Assembly: GCA_036986115.1 (NCBI GenBank)
Contig: BTQY01000001.1
Coordinates: 43,807 to 107,806, forward strand
Direction: 5' to 3'
DNA length: 64,000 bases
Origin: Gammaproteobacteria bacterium
GTDB taxonomy: Bacteria > Pseudomonadota > Gammaproteobacteria > BTQY01
Part shown: positions 33,687 through 58,756 of the stretch, piece by piece
Position numbering within the stretch: the stretch's first letter is position 1
How the letters are laid out: each line of letters opens with the position of its first letter
Notes under the pieces: model-generated
The model's database searches: none
The model's input: the letters and a program-made list of their open reading frames with translations, nothing else
Told to the model about the DNA's origin: nothing
Position numbers and translations under genes: made by a program

Positions 33687-33848
33687 CGTTTGCTAAAGAG
33701 GCAGTAACTTACAAAAGGTAAGGTATTGTAGTTTTCATTATATTTAAAGGATACATCGTTTCGAGTACCGATGGATAGTCAGCCGAAGGGACAGACTGGC
33801 CTATAATCGAGCTTCGGGGCCGATACAGGAAACCCAATCTCCTCGAGC

Positions 33849-38146: not shown

Positions 38147-38287
38147 TCACGCCATAAGGAGGAGCATCAGGACGCTATGTCTGATGGGTTATTGACCTGT
38201 ATGTTACACATAGGTGCTATATATAAGATATGTTCTAGAGAGCTACCCATCGTGGATAGCTCTGTGGAGGAACAAAGGAGGTGTGTG

Positions 38288-38647
38288 ATGAAAGAGCTAC
38301 GATGGCAAGACTGGGCAATTGTCCTGCTGGGTGTGTGGCTTGTGCTCTCGCCGGTGTTTGGCATCGGCGTCGTTAATGATGTGGCCGCATTCAACTCCTA
38401 TCTGACCGGCACGGCGGTGGCGATATTTGCAAGCGTGGCACTCGCCCGCCCGCAGTTGTGGGAGGAATATACTAACCTGTTCCTGGGACTCTGGTTGATC
38501 ATCGCGCCGTTTTTCCTGGGCTTTTCGAATCAGACAGGCCCGATGTGGAACCAGATCATTGTGGGCCTTCTGATCGGTGGTACCGCCCTGGCGGTTACCT
38601 TGCAGAAGACGACGCCAACGGCGGGGCACGGTCACGGGCACGCATAA
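38288..38647 (+). CDS. SPW-repeat small membrane protein
   Basis: AAGGAGG ribosome-binding site. Four predicted transmembrane segments with SPV/APF motifs (VLSPVFGIG, IIAPFFLGF) typical of the SPW-repeat family. Confidence 0.55.
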   Translation: MKELRWQDWAIVLLGVWLVLSPVFGIGVVNDVAAFNSYLTGTAVAIFASVALARPQLWEEYTNLFLGLWLIIAPFFLGFSNQTGPMWNQIIVGLLIGGTALAVTLQKTTPTAGHGHGHA

Positions 38648-46782: not shown

Positions 46783-48099
46783 TCAGTTGACGACGACCAT
46801 CTGGTGGCCCTCGCCACGCACCGTAATCTTACCGATCACCTTGAGTTGTTTCGCGTCAACGACCCAGACGAAGGGTTTTTTCCTGCTGGATACGTAGATC
46901 TTGCCGGTGTTACCGATCACCTTGACATGATAGGGCGCCGGATCGAGCTTCAGGGTACGCACCTTGCCGGTTTTGACATCGAGAGCGACCAGCTTGTTGT
47001 CCTTCTTGGCGCTGGCAAACAAGGTCTTGCCATCCGCCGAGATATCAATGCCATGGGGTTTATTGCCAATGGTAAATGTTTTTACCACTTTGAGTTTTTC
47101 CAGCGAAACCTTGGATATCGTTCCACCGCGGCCATTATTGGTATAGACGAATTTTTCGTCCGGAGACATCAGGATGTGTTCCGGGCCTTTGCCAACCAGT
47201 ATGTTCCTGCTGACGATCCAGTTTTTGGTATCGATGACGCTGAGTGTGTTATTACCCGCATTACTCACGTACATCTGCGCACCGCCATCGGCAAACACGA
47301 CATAGTTCGGTTGTGGCCCGGTGTAGATGTTGCGAAATATCTTCTTGGTTGCCAGATCAATCAGACTAATCGTCCCGGCAGTCGTGTGAGCAGATACGGC
47401 ATACTTCCCATCTGGTGTAACAAAGGTGTGATGCGCCATCCCCCTGACCTTGATGGTGGTTTCCAGTTTGTTATCCGCCACCCGGATCAGTGAGACAGTG
47501 CTGATACCCACTGCGGGGAGCAAACCACCTTTCTGTGCTGCATGGTGCTTTTTATGATCAGCATCTGACATGCCTTTGGGTTTTTTCATCTTGGACTGGC
47601 CGGATTTGCTCATGTTGGCATGGTCCTTCTTCACCGGAGGCTCGGTTGTTGCCTTCGGCTTGCCGCCCATCGCCGAATGATCCTGTGTCTTTTTATCAGC
47701 ACCCGGTTGGGGATGATGTTTCTTATGATCCGCCTCGGATACTCCGGCAGGCTTCGCCATCGTTGATGCAGCAGATTTTGGCTTACCAGTCTTGGATGAC
47801 ATCATTGCATGTCCTGCCGTTTTCCCGGATGACATCATTCCATGTCCCCCCATTTTCGGTCGACCCGCTACCACCTCATCGTTGGAGCCCGCAACCAGGT
47901 ATTCGCCATTGGGGGTCAATGACAGGCCGTGAATATTTTTGAAACCACTGATCTTGCCGATTGTCTTGTCCGTCGCCGCATCCACGATCAGTATTTCATT
48001 CGCAGAGCCCAGCGGTATGTATACGGTCGGACTTGCCAGTGATGTCAGCGGGGCCAACATGGCGGCCCCACCGAGTAGTACGAATTTGAATGTATTCAT
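46783..48099 (-). CDS. YVTN-family beta-propeller protein with a His/Met-rich low-complexity insertion (putative periplasmic metal binding)
   Basis: Signal peptide. YVTN repeats at both ends. Insertion of about 110 aa (HGMMSSGKTAGHAMMSSKTGKPK...ADHKKHH...ADHKKHH) encoded by imperfect tandem DNA repeats. Confidence 0.75.
   Translation of the reverse strand: MNTFKFVLLGGAAMLAPLTSLASPTVYIPLGSANEILIVDAATDKTIGKISGFKNIHGLSLTPNGEYLVAGSNDEVVAGRPKMGGHGMMSSGKTAGHAMMSSKTGKPKSAASTMAKPAGVSEADHKKHHPQPGADKKTQDHSAMGGKPKATTEPPVKKDHANMSKSGQSKMKKPKGMSDADHKKHHAAQKGGLLPAVGISTVSLIRVADNKLETTIKVRGMAHHTFVTPDGKYAVSAHTTAGTISLIDLATKKIFRNIYTGPQPNYVVFADGGAQMYVSNAGNNTLSVIDTKNWIVSRNILVGKGPEHILMSPDEKFVYTNNGRGGTISKVSLEKLKVVKTFTIGNKPHGIDISADGKTLFASAKKDNKLVALDVKTGKVRTLKLDPAPYHVKVIGNTGKIYVSSRKKPFVWVVDAKQLKVIGKITVRGEGHQMVVVN
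47794..47847 (-). repeat. 33-bp imperfect tandem repeat (2 copies) inside the propeller gene, encoding MMSS(G/K)-type His/Met motifs
   Basis: GGATGACATCATTGCATGTCC at 47794 and GGATGACATCATTCCATGTCC at 47827. Confidence 0.6.
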
Positions 48100-48196: not shown

Positions 48197-48228
48197 AGTG
48201 TAGAACCTAAGTGTTACTTACAGGTCAA
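48197..48228 (-). promoter_or_regulatory. MerR-family-type promoter (element B): TTGACC-N20-TACACT with dyad ACCTGTAAGTAACACTTAGGT
   Basis: On the minus strand, -35 is at 48223-48228 and -10 at 48197-48202. About 90 nt upstream of the propeller-2 start. Confidence 0.55.
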
Positions 48229-48508
48229 GTGTTTTACCAAATTGTAATGATAAAGGCCAGCGGTATCGGATAAAAGGCGGTCACTGGCCGCCACTGGCAA
48301 GGGTCGCGATGACGCGAAGGAATTCACTCGTGTCGTGGGTGCGTGGATGTACCCCAGGGGCATGATGTACAGGAAGTACAAATGTCGCGGGCGCATGAAC
48401 GCACCCCAAGGGCACTTCTGCACTTTGTTCGGGCGCTCCGTAGCGACCGAGCTGCAGACCCCCTGTCGCGCTGGCACTACCCAGGTGATATTCAAACTCT
48501 TGCACCAG

Positions 48509-48540
48509 AGTGTAGAACCTATGTGTTACTCACAGGTCAA
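48509..48540 (-). promoter_or_regulatory. MerR-family-type promoter (element C, tandem copy): TTGACC-N20-TACACT with dyad ACCTGTGAGTAACACATAGGT
   Basis: Same orientation as element B, about 310 bp further upstream. The core matches B at 31 of 34 positions. Confidence 0.5.
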
Positions 48541-48683
48541 GACAATATGTCCTTGCCGGGGCTGGCTCCAGGTCCAGGGTAAATCAGTACATTTTTTCGT
48601 TGTTCCTGAAATTATTTGCAAGCCAGGTGATTTCTATCCAGAATAAGACTCAATCCAGATATATGCAAGGCAAGGGCCCCGAC

Positions 48684-49543: not shown

Positions 49544-50020
49544 ATGTCTAAATACAATCGTTTCCGTCGAGCATTCCTGCAGGCCGCCGGGCTTTTCGGT
49601 GCCGGCATGGTCACGACTAAAGTTCAGGCACATCATACTGATTCTCATTTTAACGATTCCTCTGCGCATAAAGTAGTCTTCCAATGCAATAAAGTTGAAC
49701 CAGAGTATCTGGGTCATATTTTGTTTTCAGCGGGAGTGATGCTGAGAAAATATGGTGATGATGTTGAAATAGTTATCACAACATTCGGCCGTGGCGTGAA
49801 CCTGTTGGGAAAGAACCCGATCAGACCTATTTCCAAAGAGCATCAGGAAAGAGCAGGCTCACTGGCTGCTTACGGAGTGGCCTTTCACATCTGTCATAGC
49901 ACCATGAAGTCACTTAACTGGGGCAAAGAAGATATTGTCGCTTATGCCAAGGTCGTACCGGCTGGTGCGATAGACCTGATGGAATTACAGGAAAAGGGAT
50001 TCAGCTACATTAGTGAATAA
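49544..50020 (+). CDS. Tat-exported DsrE/DsrF-like (YchN-fold) protein
   Basis: Twin-arginine motif NRFRRAFLQAAGLFGAG. DsrE-like core (KVVFQCN...AFHICHSTM) with a conserved Cys. Confidence 0.55.
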   Translation: MSKYNRFRRAFLQAAGLFGAGMVTTKVQAHHTDSHFNDSSAHKVVFQCNKVEPEYLGHILFSAGVMLRKYGDDVEIVITTFGRGVNLLGKNPIRPISKEHQERAGSLAAYGVAFHICHSTMKSLNWGKEDIVAYAKVVPAGAIDLMELQEKGFSYISE

Positions 50021-50074: not shown

Positions 50075-51202
50075 TCATTCGAAATCTTCCATCTCCAGTT
50101 CACGGTAGACAAAATTAGCATTGGCGCGTTGGTTAAGTTTATACAGGCGTGTACTGCGCCAGTCTTTGAAATCTGTCTGGTCTACCGCGTTTAATAAATC
50201 GACATCATTGGCAATTGCCTTACGCATGGCTGCGCGTAATCTTTTAATATAAGATTGTGTTCGCTTGACCATAGGGAATGGCGATGTTTGCGCACTGCCA
50301 TGACCGGGGATCATTAATTTAACCTTGGCAAATTTCTTCAGTAACCAGTCCTGGGCCTCAATGGCACGCAAAGAATTACCATCACCCATATACGTGGTGC
50401 GCTGATTAAAAGCCAAATCCGAGATCCACACAACTTGTTGCCCTGGTTGGTATACCACCAAATCACCATACGAATGATGTTTGCCAACATTGTAAATTTC
50501 AAATGTTCTGCCGCCAGTCTTTAGCGTATAACTGGAAAACAGTTTGCCGCTAATGGGAATATCAGGACCAACTCCGGCAAATCCAGCCATGTCCGGTTTG
50601 ATAAAGGTACGACGAAAAGCAGCTGAACTATCGATTTTTTCCGAACGAATATAATCCAGTGTCCCGATGTGGGCGATTACCTTAACGCCACCTAGCTGGC
50701 GAAAAGCATTGGCACCGTAGGAATGATCCGGGTGGTTGTGGGTAACAATGAGATATTTGACTGGTTTATTGGTGACCGAACGAATGGTGGCGATCATACG
50801 CTTGCCGAGTTTAGGGGTACCCAGCGAATCGATCACAACCACCCCATCGTTCGTCACTACAAAACCAGCATTGCCATTCCAGCCACGATTGTACTGATCC
50901 ACTTCCGCGATGTTACCAAAGAAAAAATAGGTATCGTTTGCCACCTTAAAATAAGGCAGCGGGGCATCGGCCTTGTCCGTTTCCTTAAGCACGATATTAG
51001 GTATCTCAGTGGTATCGATGGCTTTTTTCGGCACATAATATCGTGATGGATCAGTACCGAAACCATGCGCCACGGGGACAGCCTGTTTATCTGACTGTTT
51101 GTCTGACGCAGCAAATGCGGCACTGAAAAACATCATACACACTGCCGTGAAGAAAAGTGTCTGTCTTTTACTCATCCTGGCATCTGGATTAACCGTTCTC
51201 AT
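50075..51202 (-). CDS. Periplasmic MBL-fold metallo-hydrolase
   Basis: Signal peptide. HxHxDH motif (THNHPDHSYG). Starts 1 bp downstream of the yeeE-like gene, so an operon is likely. Confidence 0.7.
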   Translation of the reverse strand: MRTVNPDARMSKRQTLFFTAVCMMFFSAAFAASDKQSDKQAVPVAHGFGTDPSRYYVPKKAIDTTEIPNIVLKETDKADAPLPYFKVANDTYFFFGNIAEVDQYNRGWNGNAGFVVTNDGVVVIDSLGTPKLGKRMIATIRSVTNKPVKYLIVTHNHPDHSYGANAFRQLGGVKVIAHIGTLDYIRSEKIDSSAAFRRTFIKPDMAGFAGVGPDIPISGKLFSSYTLKTGGRTFEIYNVGKHHSYGDLVVYQPGQQVVWISDLAFNQRTTYMGDGNSLRAIEAQDWLLKKFAKVKLMIPGHGSAQTSPFPMVKRTQSYIKRLRAAMRKAIANDVDLLNAVDQTDFKDWRSTRLYKLNQRANANFVYRELEMEDFE

Positions 51203-51203
51203 A

Positions 51204-52409
51204 TTAACTTACCTGTTTCAGTTTTCCTATACGCGGTATCAAACGAACATCGGCCAGTGCTGCCAGTAATGCATCCATCACACTGGCGTCCTCATAGACC
51301 ATACGATAGTATTCAAACTTCATCGTTATCGCACAGCCAAGAATAAATGATGCAAAGGCAACCAGCGAACCCAATGCAAGGGTAGAGAAACCTGTAATTC
51401 CCTGTCCAAAGGTACAACCCATTGCCAGCACACCACCGATACCCATTAATATGCCACCAAAAAGATAACGTACGAGATCCTTCATCGAACTAAACCATTC
51501 AAATCGCAGGTTGCCGGTAAATAAAGCATAGATAAAGGAACCCACAATCACACCAACAAGAATAGCAACACCGAAAGTAATCAGTGATATTTCCAGAGGA
51601 TTAGCAAGATAATAGAGCGTTTCACCCATTGGATTAACAAAAGTGAATGACATGGCGCCGACACCCGGTGGTGGTGAGTCCATAAAACTGGCGGCCTCAA
51701 CCGCCTCCTGACCTAATGGTCCAGCTGTAACGTACCAGCCGGCCACAACTATCAGGCCAACGACTGTCCCACCTAATATATTATCGAAGCGACTGAGGAA
51801 ATCACGCGAACGAAAAATAAAGTACAGGAACGTCAGTATAATTAATGCGGCTGCCAATGGGTGAAACCAGTTACTGTCTGCGACACCGAACAGACTGCCC
51901 ACCATTGTGGTGATCTGTTGACTATTCATGCCATAATTTTGCAAATCAATCGTCAATGGTGACATCCAGATATGAAAACCGTAATGATAGAAATCCGTCT
52001 TGGTCATCAGGAAGGCAAAAATCCCACCGATAAACAACACAAACAACGACTTCATATTACCGCCACCGATACGAATCAGCGTCTTGTTGACGCAACCACC
52101 TGCCAGCGTCATGCCAACACCAAAAATAAGGCCACCCAGCAAATAACGGATCCAGGCAAAATTGGCGGTGCGATACGGTGGCATGGTCATATCAAGATTG
52201 ATGATGCCGAGTTGTTCAAGCAACAGGACCCCAGACATGGCAACAGCAATAGCTAATAGCCATGCATACATTCGCCCCTTATCGCCCATATTGACCCAGT
52301 CTGAAATCGCCCCCATGGTGCAGAAATTGGTTTTGTGAACCACGATACCCAGAACTACTGCCAGGCTAAAACCTGACAAAATGACATACCATATTGATGC
52401 GCCTTCCAT
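51204..52409 (-). CDS. YeeE/YedE-family inner-membrane transporter (thiosulfate/sulfur-compound TsuA-like), two-repeat form
   Basis: Two conserved Cys-loop motifs (NFCTMGAIS and AMGCTFGQG). About 10 transmembrane segments. Confidence 0.8.
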   Translation of the reverse strand: MEGASIWYVILSGFSLAVVLGIVVHKTNFCTMGAISDWVNMGDKGRMYAWLLAIAVAMSGVLLLEQLGIINLDMTMPPYRTANFAWIRYLLGGLIFGVGMTLAGGCVNKTLIRIGGGNMKSLFVLFIGGIFAFLMTKTDFYHYGFHIWMSPLTIDLQNYGMNSQQITTMVGSLFGVADSNWFHPLAAALIILTFLYFIFRSRDFLSRFDNILGGTVVGLIVVAGWYVTAGPLGQEAVEAASFMDSPPPGVGAMSFTFVNPMGETLYYLANPLEISLITFGVAILVGVIVGSFIYALFTGNLRFEWFSSMKDLVRYLFGGILMGIGGVLAMGCTFGQGITGFSTLALGSLVAFASFILGCAITMKFEYYRMVYEDASVMDALLAALADVRLIPRIGKLKQVS

Positions 52410-52715
52410 TAAGTTCTCCTGTTACATGTTAGCTGTACTATTCTGATTGCAGCGTTTAAGTTTATGCCTGACCTGTTGCCCTGTTAGCTGATGGCCAATG
52501 CGTACGAGCCGCAGGTTTTAGCCTCATTTCATTATATTAATCGTTTTAATTTTAATTCACTACAACCACTATATGGCTTTCACCTTGAATATTATGGGGA
52601 TTTTGCCAATAACCAGCTAATTGCCTGGTATCAACTGCCCAGATGACAGCCATATTGCAACAGGATGCAAATAATTTCCTGTTTTAACATCGAGTTACGC
52701 ACTCATTAAATCATA

Positions 52716-52747
52716 AGGGTAGAACCTATGTGCAGCTCACAGGTCAA
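52716..52747 (-). promoter_or_regulatory. MerR-family-type promoter (element D): TTGACC-N20-TACCCT with dyad ACCTGTGAGCTGCACATAGGT
   Basis: On the minus strand, -35 is at 52742-52747 and -10 at 52716-52721. 8 of 10 dyad pairs are complementary. About 300-nt leader to the yeeE start. Confidence 0.55.
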
Positions 52748-52890
52748 GGATTTCCTGATCCTGGCTAATCAGTATTCCTGAAAAATATTAGTACAAGTCA
52801 GCAGTAGTGAGTATAAAATCAGCCTGATGGTCTTAACGGCAGTGTATAAATCAATCTGAATACCATCCCATCATGCAGAATCCCATGTCA

Positions 52891-53802
52891 TCATTTCTCA
52901 CTGGACTTGCCAAGATTCGTGTTTTCCAACGGGAGCAGCCTTACGTTCCAACGCCTTAACGCGGCATCATCCACTCGCAGGTTGCGGTAACCTGCTGCAT
53001 AGAACATGGCATAATTAAATGCTGAGCCAGTGCCACCCAGACAGGTCAGCAGCATCGGCCTGTCGGGATTGATTTTCATGCGTGCGAGCAGCCCTGGTAT
53101 TTTCGGTGCCTTGGCATACAACCGTCCATTGTCGGCCTTGCGCATGTAATCCTCCCATGGCTGATTGACGCTACCCGGGATGCGCCCGTAACGCGGATTG
53201 GCCTGAAACTTGCTTAATCCTTCAAAGTGGGTTGCTGGCCGGCCATCCACCAGTAAATAATGTTCGCGTATTTTGGCTAGTTCATCTGTTGTAATTTCCA
53301 GCGCAAGTATTGGTCGTGCGACGAAGTTGCCCGCCTGAACAGCATCGCTGTCATCTTCTATCGGACCATCAGCGGCTAACCAGCCATGCCATCCTTCATC
53401 GAGCACGCCGACGTTGGTATATCCCAACAAGTGAAACAGCCAGTACAGATAGAATGCGCCCAATATTTCATCTGTGTTGTTACCTTTGTAGTAAATCACC
53501 ACACCATCGTTATCGTTAATACCCAGTTTACGGATTTTATCTGCCAGCTTGTCAACCGATAAGCGCACCAGCGCCCCATCGCTGTCGACATAACGCCATG
53601 CGCTTTTGTTGGTAACCACACTACCCGGTATATGCCCATTAAAAGTAAAGTCCACCTCATCAGATACTTCAATAATTGCCAGGTCAGTCTGATTTATATT
53701 GTTAATCAGCCATTGCGGACTAACGCTTGCTGGCACTGATACCGCAAAGCTCTGGCCGGAGATGAGCAAACACGCAGTTACTATCATGAACCGATATTTC
53801 AT
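52891..53802 (-). CDS. Periplasmic tandem-rhodanese sulfurtransferase
   Basis: Signal peptide. Two rhodanese domains (GHIPGSV...; active-site loop LTCLGGTGSA). Confidence 0.75.
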   Translation of the reverse strand: MKYRFMIVTACLLISGQSFAVSVPASVSPQWLINNINQTDLAIIEVSDEVDFTFNGHIPGSVVTNKSAWRYVDSDGALVRLSVDKLADKIRKLGINDNDGVVIYYKGNNTDEILGAFYLYWLFHLLGYTNVGVLDEGWHGWLAADGPIEDDSDAVQAGNFVARPILALEITTDELAKIREHYLLVDGRPATHFEGLSKFQANPRYGRIPGSVNQPWEDYMRKADNGRLYAKAPKIPGLLARMKINPDRPMLLTCLGGTGSAFNYAMFYAAGYRNLRVDDAALRRWNVRLLPLENTNLGKSSEK

Positions 53803-54291
53803 ATGGCTTCCTAATGGTGCGGTGAAGAGTAACTACAACTATAAACTTACCAATACGGTAATTTCAACTTCCCTCACTTCGTGCAGCAAAAACGTTTTAT
53901 AGCGGTGCCCAAATCAAGGCAGAAAACCAGCCATAGCAAGCAACATCCTGAATCAGGTTAGTTGGCTGAGGCCCGTTCAGAGCAGTTTCCCTCGGGCATG
54001 AAATCCGCCTGCTCTTTCTGCCTTTTTCATCATAGATAAATACTTCAATCTCGTGAACGGTGCCCGGGTTTTTGGTTTCATAGCGGCCAATATCCGGGAC
54101 AGCCAGCCGTCGCCAGTGCCAGGGTCGCGAAGTTGGCACAGTTTTTTAAGGCCTTGCCCGGCATTCTCGGTAGTTCTTTGAATTGTTTGTAAATATTGGA
54201 TATATTTACTGTGGTTTTTCGTCAGTACGCATATTCTGTCAGACGTCCGTGACAGGGATTTATTTCATCTCAAACGGTAAAGGTAGAAAAG

Positions 54292-54323
54292 CTTGACCTA
54301 TGCCTAACGTACAGGTTATAGAC
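54292..54323 (+). promoter_or_regulatory. MerR-family-type promoter (element E): TTGACC-N20-TAGACT with dyad ACCTATGCCTAACGTACAGGT
   Basis: -35 at 54292-54297. -10 at 54318-54323. About 60 nt upstream of the cfa AAGGAGG/ATG. Confidence 0.5.
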
Positions 54324-54387
54324 TTACCCATAGAGTAGCAAAACACAGCCGTTTCCTGATATTGATCTCACTGTAAGGAGGCAACAA

Positions 54388-55734
54388 ATGGAATCCACAG
54401 AAAAAAAATTCAATGCGCTCCAGACCACTGCGCTCACCGGTGTTTCAGCCACTTCAACAAGTGACAGTCTCTCGAAAATTGGCGCTGAGATTGTTTCAAC
54501 GCTTCTCGCGGATTACCGTGGCGATATCGCCATTCGACTCTGGGACGGCACGCTTGCACACGGTACATTTGATGCGCCCTGTACCGTTGTTTTCAAAAAA
54601 CCTGGTGCATTGCGCGAACTGATCCTGCACCGAAGTTTGCTGCGGCTCGCAGACAGCTATCTTAGCGGTGACATTGACGTGGAAGGCGATCTGGAGACCC
54701 TGTTTGAGCTCCAGACGACCCTGGCCAACCTGCATCTGTCCCTGGGTACCCGGCTGCACCTGTTGTATCAGGCCCTGCGGCTGCCGAGGCGGGCCCGCAA
54801 CGGCGCTACGCGCAGTTGGCGTGCAAAAAGGTCCGAGCATCAGAATTCCCAGGCCAGCATCGCGCACCATTACGATGTGAGCAACAATTTCTACCAGCTC
54901 TGGCTGGACCCGGAAATGGTGTACTCCTGTGCCTATTTCAGTTCCACCGATCAATCCCTGGCCGGGGCACAGCAGGATAAACTGGATTACTTGTGTCGCA
55001 AGTTGCGGCTGGAGCCGGGACAGACACTGCTGGATGTCGGCTGTGGCTGGGGTGCGCTGGCCTTGTGGGCTGCGCGCCATTACGGGGTGCAGGTACACGG
55101 CATCACGCTCAGTCAGGAGCAGCAACGATTTGCACAGGAGCGGGTGCGTGCCACCGGCCTGGAACAGCAGGTCCGTATCGAATTGCTGGATTATCGTGAT
55201 CTGCCGGAGGATGCACAATATGACCGCGTGGTCAGTGTCGGCATGTTTGAGCATGTTGGCGTCAAGAACTTCCCGACCTATTTCGGCACCGTCCGACGGG
55301 TACTCAAGCCCAATGGCCTGTTTCTGAATCACGGTATTACCAGTGAGACGGGCTGGGAACGCTCGACACTGACCCGCTTCATGAACCGCTATATCTTTCC
55401 AGATGGTGAACTGGCGCGTATCAGTGACGTGACCGCCGCGATGGAACTCGCCGGTTTCGAAACCCTGGATGTCGAAGGCCTGCGCCTGCATTATGCACTG
55501 ACCCTGCGCCACTGGGTGCGTGTACTGGAGGCAAAACGTGACCAGGCAATACGCTATTCGAGTGAAGTGACATACCGGTTATGGCGGTTATATATGGCTG
55601 GCTGTGCCTTTTATTTCGATGAGGGCAGCACCGGCCTGTACCAGGTCCTGGCGGGTCACCAGCACCACTTGCAACCCGTACCGCTGCGGCGTGATGATCT
55701 TTACAGGCACCGTAGTGTTGATCGGGATAGGTAG
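54388..55734 (+). CDS. cfa: Cyclopropane-fatty-acyl-phospholipid synthase family methyltransferase
   Basis: SAM-binding motif LLDVGCGWGALALWAA. 448 aa. Strong ribosome-binding site. Confidence 0.85.
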   Translation: MESTEKKFNALQTTALTGVSATSTSDSLSKIGAEIVSTLLADYRGDIAIRLWDGTLAHGTFDAPCTVVFKKPGALRELILHRSLLRLADSYLSGDIDVEGDLETLFELQTTLANLHLSLGTRLHLLYQALRLPRRARNGATRSWRAKRSEHQNSQASIAHHYDVSNNFYQLWLDPEMVYSCAYFSSTDQSLAGAQQDKLDYLCRKLRLEPGQTLLDVGCGWGALALWAARHYGVQVHGITLSQEQQRFAQERVRATGLEQQVRIELLDYRDLPEDAQYDRVVSVGMFEHVGVKNFPTYFGTVRRVLKPNGLFLNHGITSETGWERSTLTRFMNRYIFPDGELARISDVTAAMELAGFETLDVEGLRLHYALTLRHWVRVLEAKRDQAIRYSSEVTYRLWRLYMAGCAFYFDEGSTGLYQVLAGHQHHLQPVPLRRDDLYRHRSVDRDR

Positions 55735-55736
55735 TC

Positions 55737-56423
55737 ATGGGACAGGAATATGCCTACGGCATGTGGGTGATCGCGGTATTTAATGTCGGCCTGTTCCTGT
55801 TTTTCTTTTTAGGTTTTCTGCCGCCGAAGGGATTCGCGGAATGGCGCAACCTGGGTGTGGTTACTGCATTTCTGCTGGCACTGTTCAGCGAAATGTACGG
55901 CTTTCCGCTGACCATCTATCTGCTCACCGGTTGGCTGGGTGATGCCTATCCTGTTCTGCAACCATTCAACCATAAATTCGGCCATCTGTGGGTGGTGGCT
56001 TTTGGTGGTTCTACGCTGGCCTGGGCACTGGTAATGGGTACCAGTCTGGTGTTGATGGTGGCTGGCTATCTGCTGCTTTCCAGGGGCTGGCAGCAAGTGC
56101 ATAGTGCACGCGGACGCATGCTCACAGAAGGCCACTATGCCTACATGCGGCATCCACAGTACACCGGTCTGTTTCTGGTCATTAGCGGTTTCCTGGTGCA
56201 ATGGCCGACACTGCTGACAATATTGATGGCGCCAATACTGCTATATGCCTATGTGCGTCTGGCGTATTCTGAGGAACGTCACATGTTGAAGCAATTTGGC
56301 GAACAGTATGCAGACTATATGCACCGGGTGCCGGGATTCTTTCCGCCCTGGTATCAATGGAAAGCGCTCTTTACGACACCGGTGCCGCCGGCGCTGAAGG
56401 TGTCGGGGAAATGGGGAGCATGA
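55737..56423 (+). CDS. Membrane methyltransferase of the PEMT/ICMT family (phospholipid or isoprenylcysteine methyltransferase-like)
   Basis: Polytopic. C-terminal motif RHPQYTG...EE is typical of the ICMT/PEMT family. Starts 2 bp after the cfa stop. Confidence 0.65.
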   Translation: MGQEYAYGMWVIAVFNVGLFLFFFLGFLPPKGFAEWRNLGVVTAFLLALFSEMYGFPLTIYLLTGWLGDAYPVLQPFNHKFGHLWVVAFGGSTLAWALVMGTSLVLMVAGYLLLSRGWQQVHSARGRMLTEGHYAYMRHPQYTGLFLVISGFLVQWPTLLTILMAPILLYAYVRLAYSEERHMLKQFGEQYADYMHRVPGFFPPWYQWKALFTTPVPPALKVSGKWGA

Positions 56424-56457
56424 CTAAATATGCCGGCGGCATGCCGGTCAGGAGGTA

Positions 56458-56757
56458 ATGATGGAAGGTTTACTCTCATTTCTTGTCATCGGTGGTCTGT
56501 TCTTTCTCATGATGCGCCACGGTTGCGGTGCGCACATGGGCCGCGGGGGTCATGGTGGCCATAGCCATGGAGCAGACAGCGAAGTAAAAGCAACTGATCC
56601 GGTGTGCGGCATGGAAGTTGATGTGAACCAGGGCTATGGGAAGATGCACGATGGTCAGCTATACCGGTTCTGTTCCCGTAATTGTCTCGACCAGTTTGAG
56701 GCTGAGCCTGAAAAATATCTGCATCAAGTGGTTGAAAGTACTGGAGGTGAGCAATGA
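56458..56757 (+). CDS. YHS-domain metal-binding protein with a His-rich N-terminal segment
   Basis: Transmembrane helix. HMGRGGHGGHSHG. YHS/TRASH motif DPVCGMEVD...RFCSRNC. Confidence 0.6.
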   Translation: MMEGLLSFLVIGGLFFLMMRHGCGAHMGRGGHGGHSHGADSEVKATDPVCGMEVDVNQGYGKMHDGQLYRFCSRNCLDQFEAEPEKYLHQVVESTGGEQ

Positions 56758-57023
56758 AAACTGGAATTTCACTGCTGGCGGTCGGCCATGCCAGCAGTCT
56801 GCTACTGGCCATAACATTCACACTTTGTGTATTGTGGGATCTGCTGTTGCCGGAGTATGCGATGTATACCGCCTGGCGTACTCTGCTGCCCGGCTTTGAA
56901 TGGTTGAGCTTGCAGAGTTTCATCCTGGGGTTCGTTGAAACCTGGGCCTACGGCTGGTTGTTCGCGCTGATCTGGGTACCGATCTATAATTTCTTTGCGG
57001 CGCGCGAAAAGATCGCCAGCTAA
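56754..57023 (+). CDS. Small hydrophobic membrane protein (function unknown)
   Basis: The start codon overlaps the YHS gene stop (ATGA). Two or three predicted transmembrane segments. Confidence 0.4.
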   Translation: MKTGISLLAVGHASSLLLAITFTLCVLWDLLLPEYAMYTAWRTLLPGFEWLSLQSFILGFVETWAYGWLFALIWVPIYNFFAAREKIAS

Positions 57024-57030
57024 ATGCGGC

Positions 57031-58005
57031 ATGCAAGGGCAGGAATCTAACGATCCCGCGACACCTCGCATCGGCGTTGTGCTGAGTTCCGGCGGTGTGC
57101 GTGGCGTGTTTGCACACACCGGGTTTATGCAGGCAATACAGGGCATGGGGATCCCGGTGTCCGCCAGTGCCGGTTGCAGTGCCGGTGCCCTGGTCAGTGG
57201 TGTTCTCGCCAGCGGTACTTTACTGGAGCACTGGCTCGAGACCATGGCCAGAATTACCAGCCGCTCCTTCTGGACACCGGACTCACTGCCTCGTTTTCTC
57301 TGGGAAATGACCGCACACAGGGGACGCGGCTATACCGGCCTGTCGCGCACAAATGCTGCCCTGCAATTTACCCGCGACAACCTTTCCGTGAATACCTTTG
57401 AGGAATGCCTGTACCCGTTTCATGTCCTGGCCATTAATCTGGGCACCGGCAAGAAGGTGGTGTTCTCCGAAGGTGAACTTGCCCCGCGCATAACGGCCAG
57501 CGCCGCCATGCCAATCTTTTATGACCCCGTCAGGATCGATGGCGAATACTATTGTGATGGCGCCTTGATTGATTTTGCACCGACCGATTCCATTTGCTGC
57601 CGTCATCAACTTGATGTGGTTATTGTCCATGATGTGTCCCAGCATTTCGGCCTCCACCGTGATCTGGATATGGCCCTGCAGGACAACTGGGCGATGCTGG
57701 AGATCGTCAATCGCCTGGTGTATCGGGAAAAGCCCTGGTATTTGTCCGGTGAACCGCTGTCTTTGCACCACTGTCCCTGCGGTTGTGGGGCGATCGTGAT
57801 TGCGATCGAGCCCGAACTCCTGCCGATGCGCTGGCCAGTGACCAAAGGCGGTGATAAGGCCCAATGTCTTGTCAGGGAGCAGGTCGAGGCACTGTTGCAG
57901 CCTTATTTACAGGCAATATTGACCGATCCACGCAAACAGTTGCCGTTGTCCGGAAATACCGTGACTAAGCCGGCTGGCGAGTGCGGAAAGTGTGATAGCC
58001 ACTAA
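57031..58005 (+). CDS. Patatin-like phospholipase
   Basis: GxGxxG (SSGGVRGV), GxSxG nucleophile elbow (AGCSAG) and DGA catalytic Asp (YCDGALIDF). An alternative start lies at 56995. Confidence 0.8.
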   Translation: MQGQESNDPATPRIGVVLSSGGVRGVFAHTGFMQAIQGMGIPVSASAGCSAGALVSGVLASGTLLEHWLETMARITSRSFWTPDSLPRFLWEMTAHRGRGYTGLSRTNAALQFTRDNLSVNTFEECLYPFHVLAINLGTGKKVVFSEGELAPRITASAAMPIFYDPVRIDGEYYCDGALIDFAPTDSICCRHQLDVVIVHDVSQHFGLHRDLDMALQDNWAMLEIVNRLVYREKPWYLSGEPLSLHHCPCGCGAIVIAIEPELLPMRWPVTKGGDKAQCLVREQVEALLQPYLQAILTDPRKQLPLSGNTVTKPAGECGKCDSH

Positions 58006-58036: not shown

Positions 58037-58756
58037 TTACTTCACCAGATAACCTTCAAATTGATTAGAGCAACTAACCGGAGCCAGATTTGTGGTAGGA
58101 CAGCTGCCTGAGCAGGTATAGTAATAGTAGGTATAATTATAGCATATCCCAAAACCGCACCCATACGATGTCCTGGTGTAAGCGCAGGATATTGTCTCAC
58201 ACGTGGCGTTGAATGTTACCCCCTCATCCGGAGCACAATATTGGTTATAGCTATAAATTTGGCGAGAGCCTGTATTAAGCCCTAGTTGCGATGCGGTTAC
58301 ATTATGCGGATTACCGGTATCACTGACATGCGCTGACTGATCGAGTGTGGCAGGACTGATCCCACCGACGGTATTGGCATCATCTGCCTTAAACGCAAAA
58401 CCAGCGGATGTGAGTGCAGTTCGTGGCGACATTTCACCATCGGCAGCCACATTAATACCTAACCATAGCGGATTATCAAACAGATTGGGGGGGAATGTGC
58501 CGCCCCCAAGTTCGATCGAGAATAATCCTTTACTCACATTAACAGTTTTTGTGTTAGTCCATAATGCAATACCACCCGCATTGACATTGTAAAGGCTGAA
58601 TTTAATGCTGAAAGAACCATCAAGTGCAACACCGGATGGATCAGTTAAATAACCCTGGTAGTTTATACTTTGTGGAATAGCGGCCTGTACGTTTTGTAGC
58701 GAATGAAATAATAATACCAGTAACAGCGTGAATGCTTTAATGGAATTTTGTAACAT
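58037..58756 (-). CDS. Secreted protein with a Cys/Tyr-rich C-terminal region (unknown function)
   Basis: Signal peptide. N-terminal INYQGYLTDPSGVALDG motif. C-terminus CAPDEG...CETISCAYTRTSYGCGFGICYNYTYYYYTCSGSCP...C has 10 Cys in about 70 aa. Confidence 0.45.
   Translation of the reverse strand: MLQNSIKAFTLLLVLLFHSLQNVQAAIPQSINYQGYLTDPSGVALDGSFSIKFSLYNVNAGGIALWTNTKTVNVSKGLFSIELGGGTFPPNLFDNPLWLGINVAADGEMSPRTALTSAGFAFKADDANTVGGISPATLDQSAHVSDTGNPHNVTASQLGLNTGSRQIYSYNQYCAPDEGVTFNATCETISCAYTRTSYGCGFGICYNYTYYYYTCSGSCPTTNLAPVSCSNQFEGYLVK

Follow-up and report, generated by a model that had tools for sequence, protein, structure and literature searches.

Why should genes for a cyclopropane fatty acid (CFA) synthase-family protein, a membrane methyltransferase and a patatin-type phospholipase stand together behind what looks like the promoter of a metal sensor? 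The question is raised by positions 54,292 to 58,005 of a 64-kb stretch of gammaproteobacterial DNA (contig BTQY01000001.1), which we analysed at its full length and refer to as the window. An earlier note had described five genes at this locus as a stress-responsive membrane-lipid remodelling operon led by a promoter sequence, Element E. Following up this description, we consider it moderately probable that the operon serves to protect envelope lipids and is induced by a metal, probably Cu(I); the locus is probably no general lipid operon but an accessory arm of a copper-stress response. This reading draws on what was observed of the gene content, the anatomy and recurrence of Element E, its linkage elsewhere to merR and copper-ATPase genes, and the intact catalytic residues of the encoded enzymes.

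Five tightly packed genes lie behind a MerR-type promoter

All five open reading frames (ORFs) that the earlier note had placed on the plus strand at 54388-58005 are present and tightly spaced, with gaps of at most 34 nt or overlaps, and the labels given to them agree with Pfam (CMAS, PEMT/ICMT, YHS, DUF5676 and patatin). The first gene (54388-55734, +) encodes a 448-aa CMAS protein and has a strong AGGAGG ribosome-binding site in front of it. A gap of 2 nt separates it from a gene for a 228-aa CzcN-like methyltransferase of the ICMT/PEMT/DUF1295 superfamily (55737-56423, +), whose translation is predicted from this spacing to be coupled to that of the CMAS gene. After 34 nt follows the gene for a 99-aa membrane-anchored YHS protein (56458-56757, +), again with an AGGAGG site, and the gene for an 89-aa two-transmembrane DUF5676 protein (56754-57023, +) starts on the YHS stop codon in a 4-nt ATGA overlap; AGGAGG-type ribosome-binding sites are found ahead of genes 1, 3 and 4. 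The reading frame of the Cys-rich patatin gene (57031-58005, +) is open from a TTG at 56995, which would overlap the DUF5676 gene by 29 nt, but the ATG at 57031, which leaves a gap of 7 nt, is the more likely start because orthologues begin at the equivalent position.

In keeping with the claim that these genes form a single operon, a consensus scan of its interior returned no convincing internal promoter or plus-strand terminator, with counts at or below the shuffle expectation, and we infer that the five genes constitute one transcription unit driven by Element E. A signal of horizontal transfer was sought in the GC content and rejected, as the cluster (54-58%) has the value of the leuS region and is similar to nearby housekeeping genes.

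Element E occupies 54292-54323 on the plus strand (32 nt, with the -10 box running to 54324) and reads CTTGACCTATGCCTAACGTACAGGTTATAGAC. This sequence is unique in the window and ends 64 nt before the CMAS ATG, matching the distance of about 60 nt reported previously. The attribution to a MerR-type promoter/operator also holds, given that the -35 and -10 boxes, a spacer of 19-20 bp and an internal dyad can all be recognised. At the operon the -35 box is TTGACC (54293-54298), the -10 box is TAGACT (54319-54324), the spacer measures 20 bp, and the dyad ACCTATG-N7-TACAGGT (54296-54316) lies inside it. A palindrome within a 19-20 bp spacer is a hallmark of metal-sensing MerR regulators (Permina et al., PMC1526738).

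In its general form the element has TTGACC as -35 box and TAnnnT as -10 box, set 19-20 bp apart, with an ACCTrTG-N7-CAyAGGT dyad in the spacer. The window contains five exact copies of the core pattern, TTGACCTNT-N11-AGGT (at 38192+, 48205-, 48517-, 52724- and 54293+), against about 0.008 expected by chance (12 fixed bases over 128,000 positions). All five copies are intergenic, and four of the five face a downstream gene.

Element E accompanies merR genes in related genomes

We scanned species-representative genomes from a seed alignment of methyltransferase homologues, locating neighbouring genes by tblastn and then searching for the element; a separate metagenome scan was seeded with the patatin. 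Element E stands beside a MerR-family gene in at least 15 related loci (numbered here with the prefix L). It lies directly upstream of merR in L001, L010, L015, L016, L020, L029, L032, L047, L064 and L076, whereas in L031, L036 and L041 of the methyltransferase-seeded set it follows merR directly and heads the genes that come next; the same downstream position is seen in L089/L095 and L097 of the patatin-seeded set. The linked regulators match Pfam MerR_1 and MerR-DNA-bind.

A consensus built from 27 sites reads CTTGACCTGTG..GTAAC.CACAGGTT.TAnnCT (also written CTTGACCTGTG-n-GTAAC-ACAC-AGGTT-tTAcrCT). Conservation extends to positions that were not used in retrieval, and the -10 box (TAnnnT) falls at 20-bp spacing. 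The consensus operator across sites is ACCTGTG-N7-CACAGGT with a 20-bp spacer, and in L001 and L064 the element is a perfect 10+10 palindrome. It precedes the CMAS gene in L008, L088 and L089, the ICMT gene in Sedimenticola (L004) and a propeller-CMAS pair in L093, and it is kept at the orthologous position in L008, L088, L089 and L093 at 74-87% protein identity. Sedimenticola selenatireducens has Element E followed by ICMT, YHS and DUF5676 genes.

The module recurs beside copper-type ATPases

Close relatives of the methyltransferase (59-87% identity) come from metagenome-assembled genomes of Gammaproteobacteria and one of Acidobacteria. In the closest of them, L008, whose ICMT-like protein is 87% identical to that of the window, the same five genes occur in the same order with Element E about 60 nt before the CMAS gene. 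The usual order in close relatives begins with an optional propeller gene and continues through MerR, one or two small YHS proteins, a P-type ATPase, the ICMT-like protein, a membrane YHS protein and DUF5676, with CMAS and/or patatin sometimes next (L041, L036). Among close homologues, a P1B ATPase gene lies directly upstream of the ICMT-like gene on the same strand in 15 of 24, and a YHS gene lies directly downstream of it in 20 of 29; in 17 of 29 a DUF5676 gene is directly downstream of the YHS gene in this neighbourhood. MerR is encoded within 6 kb of the ICMT-like gene in 12/27, CMAS within 5 kb in 7/27 and patatin nearby in 6/27, and propeller homologues adjoin merR or the module in 9/27. 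The ATPase linkage reaches further, to 30 of 37 distant ICMT homologues with a P1B ATPase within 10 kb (45 distant homologues at 43-55% identity, from many phyla and archaea).

The patatin-seeded scan yielded 12 loci at 50% identity or more, and 10 of these have CMAS and/or ICMT, YHS or DUF5676 neighbours in varied orders. The arrangements include Element E followed by CMAS and patatin, MerR followed by Element E, CMAS and patatin, and Element E followed by propeller, CMAS, ICMT, YHS and patatin; others run CMAS-DUF5676-patatin, CMAS-ICMT-YHS-patatin or CMAS-YHS-DUF5676-patatin. CMAS and patatin genes occur together without an ICMT gene in L088, L089, L090 and L094. The earlier suggestion that the five genes belong together is borne out by this recurrence in both the methyltransferase- and the patatin-seeded searches. 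Collectively, a set that recurs yet is shuffled under one operator points to a common physiological context rather than an obligatory complex.

The metal of this context is indicated by the ATPases. The four relatives' ATPases that we examined all have the CPC, YN and MxxSS motifs of the P1B-1 Cu type, and one relative's ATPase passes the TIGR01511 model (ATPase-IB1_Cu) with 607 bits against a cut-off of 397. Copper-type neighbours in relatives also include multicopper oxidase, CopB, CusRS, cupredoxin and CopCD. In L006/L007, CMAS-ICMT-YHS comes right after cusRS, the multicopper oxidase gene copA and copB, and a gene for a fatty-acid cis-trans isomerase (Cti) adjoins; on plasmids, the ICMT branch is found in MerR-ATPase-cupredoxin-DUF2933-ICMT operons. 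Because the same regulator and operator in relatives drive a P1B-1 ATPase operon that holds ICMT, YHS and DUF5676, Cu(I) is by analogy with them the most likely inducer, and Ag(I) may be a second one. The proposal of stress-responsive membrane remodelling, co-regulated with the propeller and YeeE genes, can thereby be sharpened: Element E is common to these genes and the stress is probably a soft metal, while the remodelling itself is plausible only.

Further lipid genes in the relatives' clusters encode phospholipase D-type enzymes (L006, L010) and Lgt (Sedimenticola L004). The slot before the patatin gene is variably occupied, by a Rieske-type protein in L031 (851-1501), by a class I S-adenosylmethionine (SAM) methyltransferase in L036 (11298-12107), and by a PilZ-like protein and a phospholipase D-type enzyme in L010 (11415-13820).

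Regulator identity and the inducing signal

Several observations weigh against the reading of the operon as a copper-induced module. At the operon the dyad of Element E is imperfect, with 5/7 positions matched per half-site. The regulator is assumed, because neither a MerR nor a P1B ATPase gene was found in the 64-kb window; the best tblastn match there to CueR, ZntR, MerR, SoxR and five relatives' MerR proteins has E=0.36. The MerR proteins linked to Element E in relatives fall below all NCBIfam cut-offs (59-81 bits for ZntR, MerR, CadR and CueR against 143-168), including 59-78 bits for the CueR model with its cut-off of 147, and their best NCBIfam matches are ZntR and MerR, not CueR. In an alignment by eye, the Cys of an SPCP motif aligns with CueR Ser77, the first loop Cys of CueR is absent, and a single C-terminal Cys-His motif (CHLIE) is present. 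A Cys at the Ser77 position is typical of divalent-metal sensors. The metal specificity is uncertain because of this Cys and the absent first loop Cys. Other targets of Element E are sulfur-trafficking genes (YeeE and a co-directional metallo-beta-lactamase), which could imply a different or broader signal, and the shuffling of gene order among relatives means that the five products need not act jointly. Since the linked regulators fall below all equivalog cut-offs and share the SPCP and CHLIE features, we regard them as an unclassified subfamily of metal-type MerR proteins.

Some of these points could equally suit a housekeeping lipid operon with a sigma-70 promoter and no stress regulation, in which the likeness to a MerR site would be coincidental or vestigial. 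Such a reading would account for the imperfect dyad, the window without a regulator gene and the GC content shared with nearby housekeeping genes, and an alternative -10 box, TATAGA, would reduce the spacer to 18 bp (TTGACC-18-TATAGA). However, an element that occurs five times in the window, flanks merR in at least 15 other loci and is kept at the orthologous position in four relatives is hard to square with coincidence, and we consider this explanation very improbable.

A more serious question is whether the same promoter logic answers to a signal other than copper, either another soft or divalent metal (Zn, Cd, Hg, Ag, Au) or thiol/reactive-sulfur stress, in which case Element E would define a sulfur/thiol-stress regulon of a sulfur-oxidising bacterium. 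The atypical regulator leaves room for such signals, which may include other metals or thiol stress: it scores under all metal-specific NCBIfam cut-offs with ZntR and MerR as best matches, it has a Cys at the Ser77 position, and its operator (ACCTGTG-N7-CACAGGT, spacer 20 bp) differs from the CueR box (ACCTTCC, spacer 19 bp). The element also heads a unit of YeeE/TsuA-like and SoxH-like metallo-beta-lactamase genes, with rhodanese and DsrE genes close by. Against this stand the pump under the same operator, which its motifs and TIGR01511 mark as a P1B-1 Cu(I)-type ATPase, the multicopper oxidase, CopB, CusRS, cupredoxin and CopCD genes found as neighbours in relatives, and the YHS domain and Cys/His/Met motifs of the operon products, which suit Cu(I). 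A non-copper signal is therefore an explanation that we take seriously but judge unlikely, and induction by Cu(I) remains the reading that we prefer.

The encoded enzymes keep their catalytic residues

The CMAS protein matches Pfam CMAS (PF02353) over its full length (337 bits against a cut-off of 27) and has an N-terminal DUF7884 domain; its best solved relatives are the bacterial CFA synthases 5z9o, 7qos and 6bqc. Aligned with 6bqc, it keeps all five bicarbonate-site residues (C181, E288, H315, I317 and Y369), the E. coli Cfa counterparts of which we take to be C139, E239, H266, I268 and Y317. The two-domain architecture, the SAM motif and the bicarbonate-site residues are the same as in the CFA synthases of E. 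coli (Cfa, 6bqc), Lactobacillus (5z9o), Aquifex (7qos) and Pseudomonas putida (CfaB). The protein falls below the NCBIfam equivalog cut-offs (CfaB 405 versus 650, Brucella CFAS 300 versus 600, PRK11705 284 versus 400), and since it is below every one of them, the product may be either cyclopropane or methyl-branched. Classical cfa genes are under RpoS and stationary-phase control, unlike the gene in the window, which lies behind a putative metal-sensor promoter.

The label 'PEMT-like' given earlier to the methyltransferase stands at the level of the superfamily but not as an indication of action on phospholipids, as the protein appears to belong instead to an uncharacterised, CzcN-like ICMT branch associated with metal-resistance clusters. 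Its Pfam matches are barely above their cut-offs (PEMT 31.8 bits with a cut-off of 25, ICMT 25.6 with 24, DUF1295 28 bits) and confined to the C-terminal ~80 aa, the cofactor region, with the PEMT and ICMT matches covering residues 117-189. NCBIfam matches lie far under cut-off (isopcys_mtase 42 versus 160, MddA 22.6 versus 270). Comparison with the ICMT structure 4a2n (Ma-ICMT) gives 35 bits and aligns the RHPxY...EE...FG..Y motifs. An AlphaFold2 model has a predicted local distance difference test score (pLDDT) of 70.6 and is confident in the C-terminal half only, the N-terminal half being low, and its Foldseek matches are weak, with ICMT at the top (E=0.016, template modelling score 0.44) and steroid-5-alpha-reductase folds as well. 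The predicted fold thus supports superfamily placement only.

There are 2147 homologues of the methyltransferase at E <= 1e-5, one of which bears the MddA name in JGI. EMYGFPLT, HxxGH (in the N-terminal half), RHPQY and EE are conserved across 86 homologues, a result that is partly circular for two of these motifs because ALF[SA]EMYG and HPQYTGLF were retrieval patterns of the scan. Unlike its close homologues, the methyltransferase gene of the window adjoins no heavy-metal pump or regulator.

A further possibility is that both SAM enzymes, instead of remodelling lipids, detoxify by methylating small thiols or metal(loid)s, in the manner of the ICMT-family methanethiol S-methyltransferase MddA, with the patatin and the small proteins as passengers. 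The tandem arrangement of two methyltransferase genes, the class I methyltransferase gene that L036 adds just before the patatin gene, the CzcN-like proteins being without a known substrate, and the similarity to MddA, together with the homologue so named, can be cited for it. That similarity is weak, however, the score being far under cut-off; the CMAS protein keeps its N-terminal domain and every CFA-synthase bicarbonate-site residue and best matches solved CFA synthases; and the co-occurrence of CMAS and patatin in four loci that lack an ICMT gene fits a common lipid substrate. We therefore give thiol or metal(loid) methylation little credence and continue with the lipid-protection reading.

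The patatin matches Pfam Patatin (PF01734) with 86.6 bits against a cut-off of 27.7, and among solved structures PlpD (5fqu) comes nearest to it. Its SSGGVRG, GCSAG and CDGAL motifs do not vary among orthologues. With numbering from ATG 57031, the residues invariant in 15 orthologues are G-C-S50-A-G, D176-G, C126, C189, C190 and C248-x-C250-x-C252. The oxyanion Gly-rich motif, the G-x-S-x-G Ser and the D-G Asp are common to this protein and RssA/PlpD. It differs from them in the seven invariant Cys of its subfamily, which include the C-x-C-x-C motif and one residue beside the catalytic Ser, and in having no PlpD-type transporter domain; against the RssA NCBIfam model it scores 86.8 bits, with a cut-off of 272. 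The invariant C-P-C-G-C (residues 248-253) is encoded at window positions 57772-57789. Together with the other invariant Cys it could form a metal-binding or redox site, and we found no description of this invariant-Cys motif. Given that the active-site residues of the CFA synthase and the catalytic dyad of the patatin are intact, it is plausible that both enzymes are active.

The earlier description of a His-rich YHS membrane protein in the middle of the operon is confirmed by a Pfam YHS (PF04945) match of 52.3 bits against a cut-off of 30.3, by the His/Cys-rich composition and by one N-terminal transmembrane helix, which is followed by MMR-GCGAHMxHG and a YHS/TRASH-type Cys domain. Both MMR-GCGAHMxHG and DPVCGM...YRFCS..C are conserved in an alignment of 30 orthologues. 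A probable role in copper sensing has been reported for a YHS domain (PMC4626032). A relationship of the N-terminus to DUF2933 was considered and rejected, the comparison giving no significant similarity.

The DUF5676 protein matches Pfam DUF5676 (PF18926) with 32.6 bits against a cut-off of 27.6; no paper in the literature that we searched mentions this family. Part of a second DUF5676 gene survives at 53873-53935 (-), in the intergenic region that separates the rhodanese gene from Element E. This short remnant, YGWFSALIWAPL*NVFAARSE, contains an in-frame stop and shares 62% identity with the C-terminus of the operon DUF5676 protein, which suggests that the module was rearranged in the past.

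A proposed route from metal to membrane

What we infer beyond the promoter anatomy, including the co-transcript, the inducing metal and the biochemistry, would run as follows. An unclassified metal-type MerR protein, presumably encoded outside the window as judged from relatives, would bind the metal and realign the -35 and -10 boxes of Element E, turning the operon on; through the other copies of Element E, the same regulator would also turn on the propeller, YeeE-metallo-beta-lactamase and SPW units. The operon products may then protect or repair the cytoplasmic membrane during the passage of copper. The CFA synthase would convert oxidation-prone cis-unsaturated acyl chains to cyclopropane rings, removing peroxidation-prone double bonds, and the Cys-rich patatin would strip acyl chains, such as those that are damaged. 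The CzcN-like methyltransferase would modify a membrane substrate, and the Cys/His/Met-rich YHS anchor with its DUF5676 partner may bind or pass on metal at the membrane face. Such a mechanism fits reports that lipid saturation goes up under copper in E. coli (PMC13104621), that phospholipids are peroxidised when Bacillus subtilis is killed by contact with copper alloys (PMC4618608), and that lipoprotein acylation is blocked by copper (PMC6538781).

A bolder version, which we regard as doubtful, is a copper-gated lipid-editing system in which Cu(I) at the membrane directly switches the lipase and the methyltransferase through soft-metal ligand motifs and, together with cyclopropanation, rewrites the bilayer around the CopA pump. 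The ligands could be the GCGAHMxHG motif and Cys residues of the YHS protein, the C-x-C-x-C motif and Ser-adjacent Cys of the patatin, and the HxxGH motif of the methyltransferase. If true, this would explain at last what the CzcN/NccN family does, and combined with a multi-operator MerR regulon that reaches sulfur-carrier genes it would mean that sulfur-oxidising bacteria have a new layer of copper defence at the envelope.

Relation to known metal-resistance systems

The nearest described counterpart is the MerR-copA-cupredoxin-DUF2933-ICMT 'copA cluster' of Alteromonas and other marine Gammaproteobacteria, published at the level of gene order without a function (Cusick et al. 2021, PMC8478169). 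Its ICMT gene belongs to the same branch (45-49% identical to the window protein), lies in a MerR-headed operon and is preceded by a gene for a small His-rich membrane protein. In the Salinimonas copy, a perfect palindrome, TTGACC-TGTGAGCGGCTCACAGGTT-TATCGT, stands before merR and matches the Element E core. The locus in the window differs in having no regulator, pump or cupredoxin gene, in the addition of CFA synthase and patatin, and in small partners of the YHS-transmembrane and DUF5676 types instead of DUF2933.

CzcN/NccN of Cupriavidus metallidurans and the product of a czcN homologue beside cusCBAF in Pseudomonas putida are likewise membrane ICMT-family proteins in metal-resistance determinants, a likeness to the window protein in family and genetic context. 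CzcN-type ICMT proteins are of unknown role, and czcN1 is up-regulated by copper (PMC7563307; PMC3056050). Unlike the window locus, these systems are RND (czc/ncc/cus) clusters under two-component control.

With the E. coli CueR regulon (copA, cueO), which serves copper efflux, Element E shares a MerR-type activator, an over-long spacer and an ACCT...AGGT dyad overlapping a TTGACC -35 box (PMC1526738). The half-site of the CueR box (ACCTTCC-N7-GGAAGGT) is ACCTTCC rather than ACCTGTG, and its spacer is 19 rather than 20 bp. CueR has Ser77, Cys112 and Cys120; the regulators linked to Element E have a different ligand set and fail the CueR model, and the putative Element E regulon is much larger and includes lipid enzymes. 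Judged by box and ligand set, the operon thus appears to lie outside the CueR regulon.

The presence of an ICMT gene in MerR-copA clusters, and CzcN itself, were already known, whereas the linkage to a CFA synthase and a Cys-rich patatin appears to be unreported in the literature searched, where we found no paper linking patatin, cyclopropane synthase, copper and MerR. Copper resistance is usually ascribed to pumps, oxidases and chaperones, and the evidence that copper attacks membrane lipids and lipoprotein acylation is recent. Considering the locus and its relatives, one putative metal-sensor operator joins a Cu(I) pump, a CFA synthase, a Cys-rich phospholipase, a CzcN-like methyltransferase and two small membrane proteins. 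The locus therefore offers a testable route to the function of CzcN/NccN and to the re-tailoring of membrane lipids under metal stress, and it brings to notice an unclassified subfamily of MerR proteins whose operator is well defined and which has at least five targets within 25 kb.

Other copies of Element E and neighbouring genes

Element E copy 2 (52716-52748, -) precedes the YeeE/TsuA-like gene (51204-52409) by 307 nt, and the metallo-beta-lactamase gene (50075-51202) comes after that gene. This metallo-beta-lactamase is SoxH-like and shares copy 2 with the YeeE/TsuA-like gene, and genes for a two-domain rhodanese and a DsrE-like protein adjoin (50075-53802, -, and 49544-50020, +). None of the YeeE/TsuA-like, metallo-beta-lactamase, rhodanese and DsrE-like genes was found in the relatives' clusters. 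The putative metal regulon may nonetheless reach into sulfur-carrier genes.

Copy 3 (48197-48229, -) stands 98 nt upstream of a YVTN beta-propeller gene (46783-48099), and copy 4 (48509-48541, -) lies 312 nt upstream of copy 3, so that two near-identical promoters occupy 48197-48541 on the minus strand. Downstream of the 48517- copy is a GC-rich stretch of 280 nt with no recognisable gene and no Rfam match. The stretch, at 48.2-48.5 kb, was considered as a decayed merR and this was rejected, as tblastn with merR proteins found no remnant in it. Just past copy 4, a divergent gene for a secreted HMA-domain (CopZ/MerP-like) protein begins at 48600/48684 (+). Rfam and tRNA scans over the whole window returned nothing.

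Copy 5 (38191-38223, +) precedes a gene for an SPW-repeat membrane protein (Pfam SPW). The listed start of this ORF, 38177, overlaps the element, and the true start is probably the ATG at 38289; a LolA-like gene and a gene for an unknown 411-aa protein come next.

On the far side of the operon, a convergent ORF of 239 aa (58037-58756, -) stops 31 nt past the patatin stop codon. It has a signal-peptide-like N-terminus and a Cys/Tyr-rich C-terminus and gave no match in a Pfam search. A half-decayed Element E, which has lost its right half-site and was grouped with the minus-strand copies by a repeat finder, lies at 33848+; it is followed by a second gene for a YVTN propeller and one for an MMPL/RND-type transporter.

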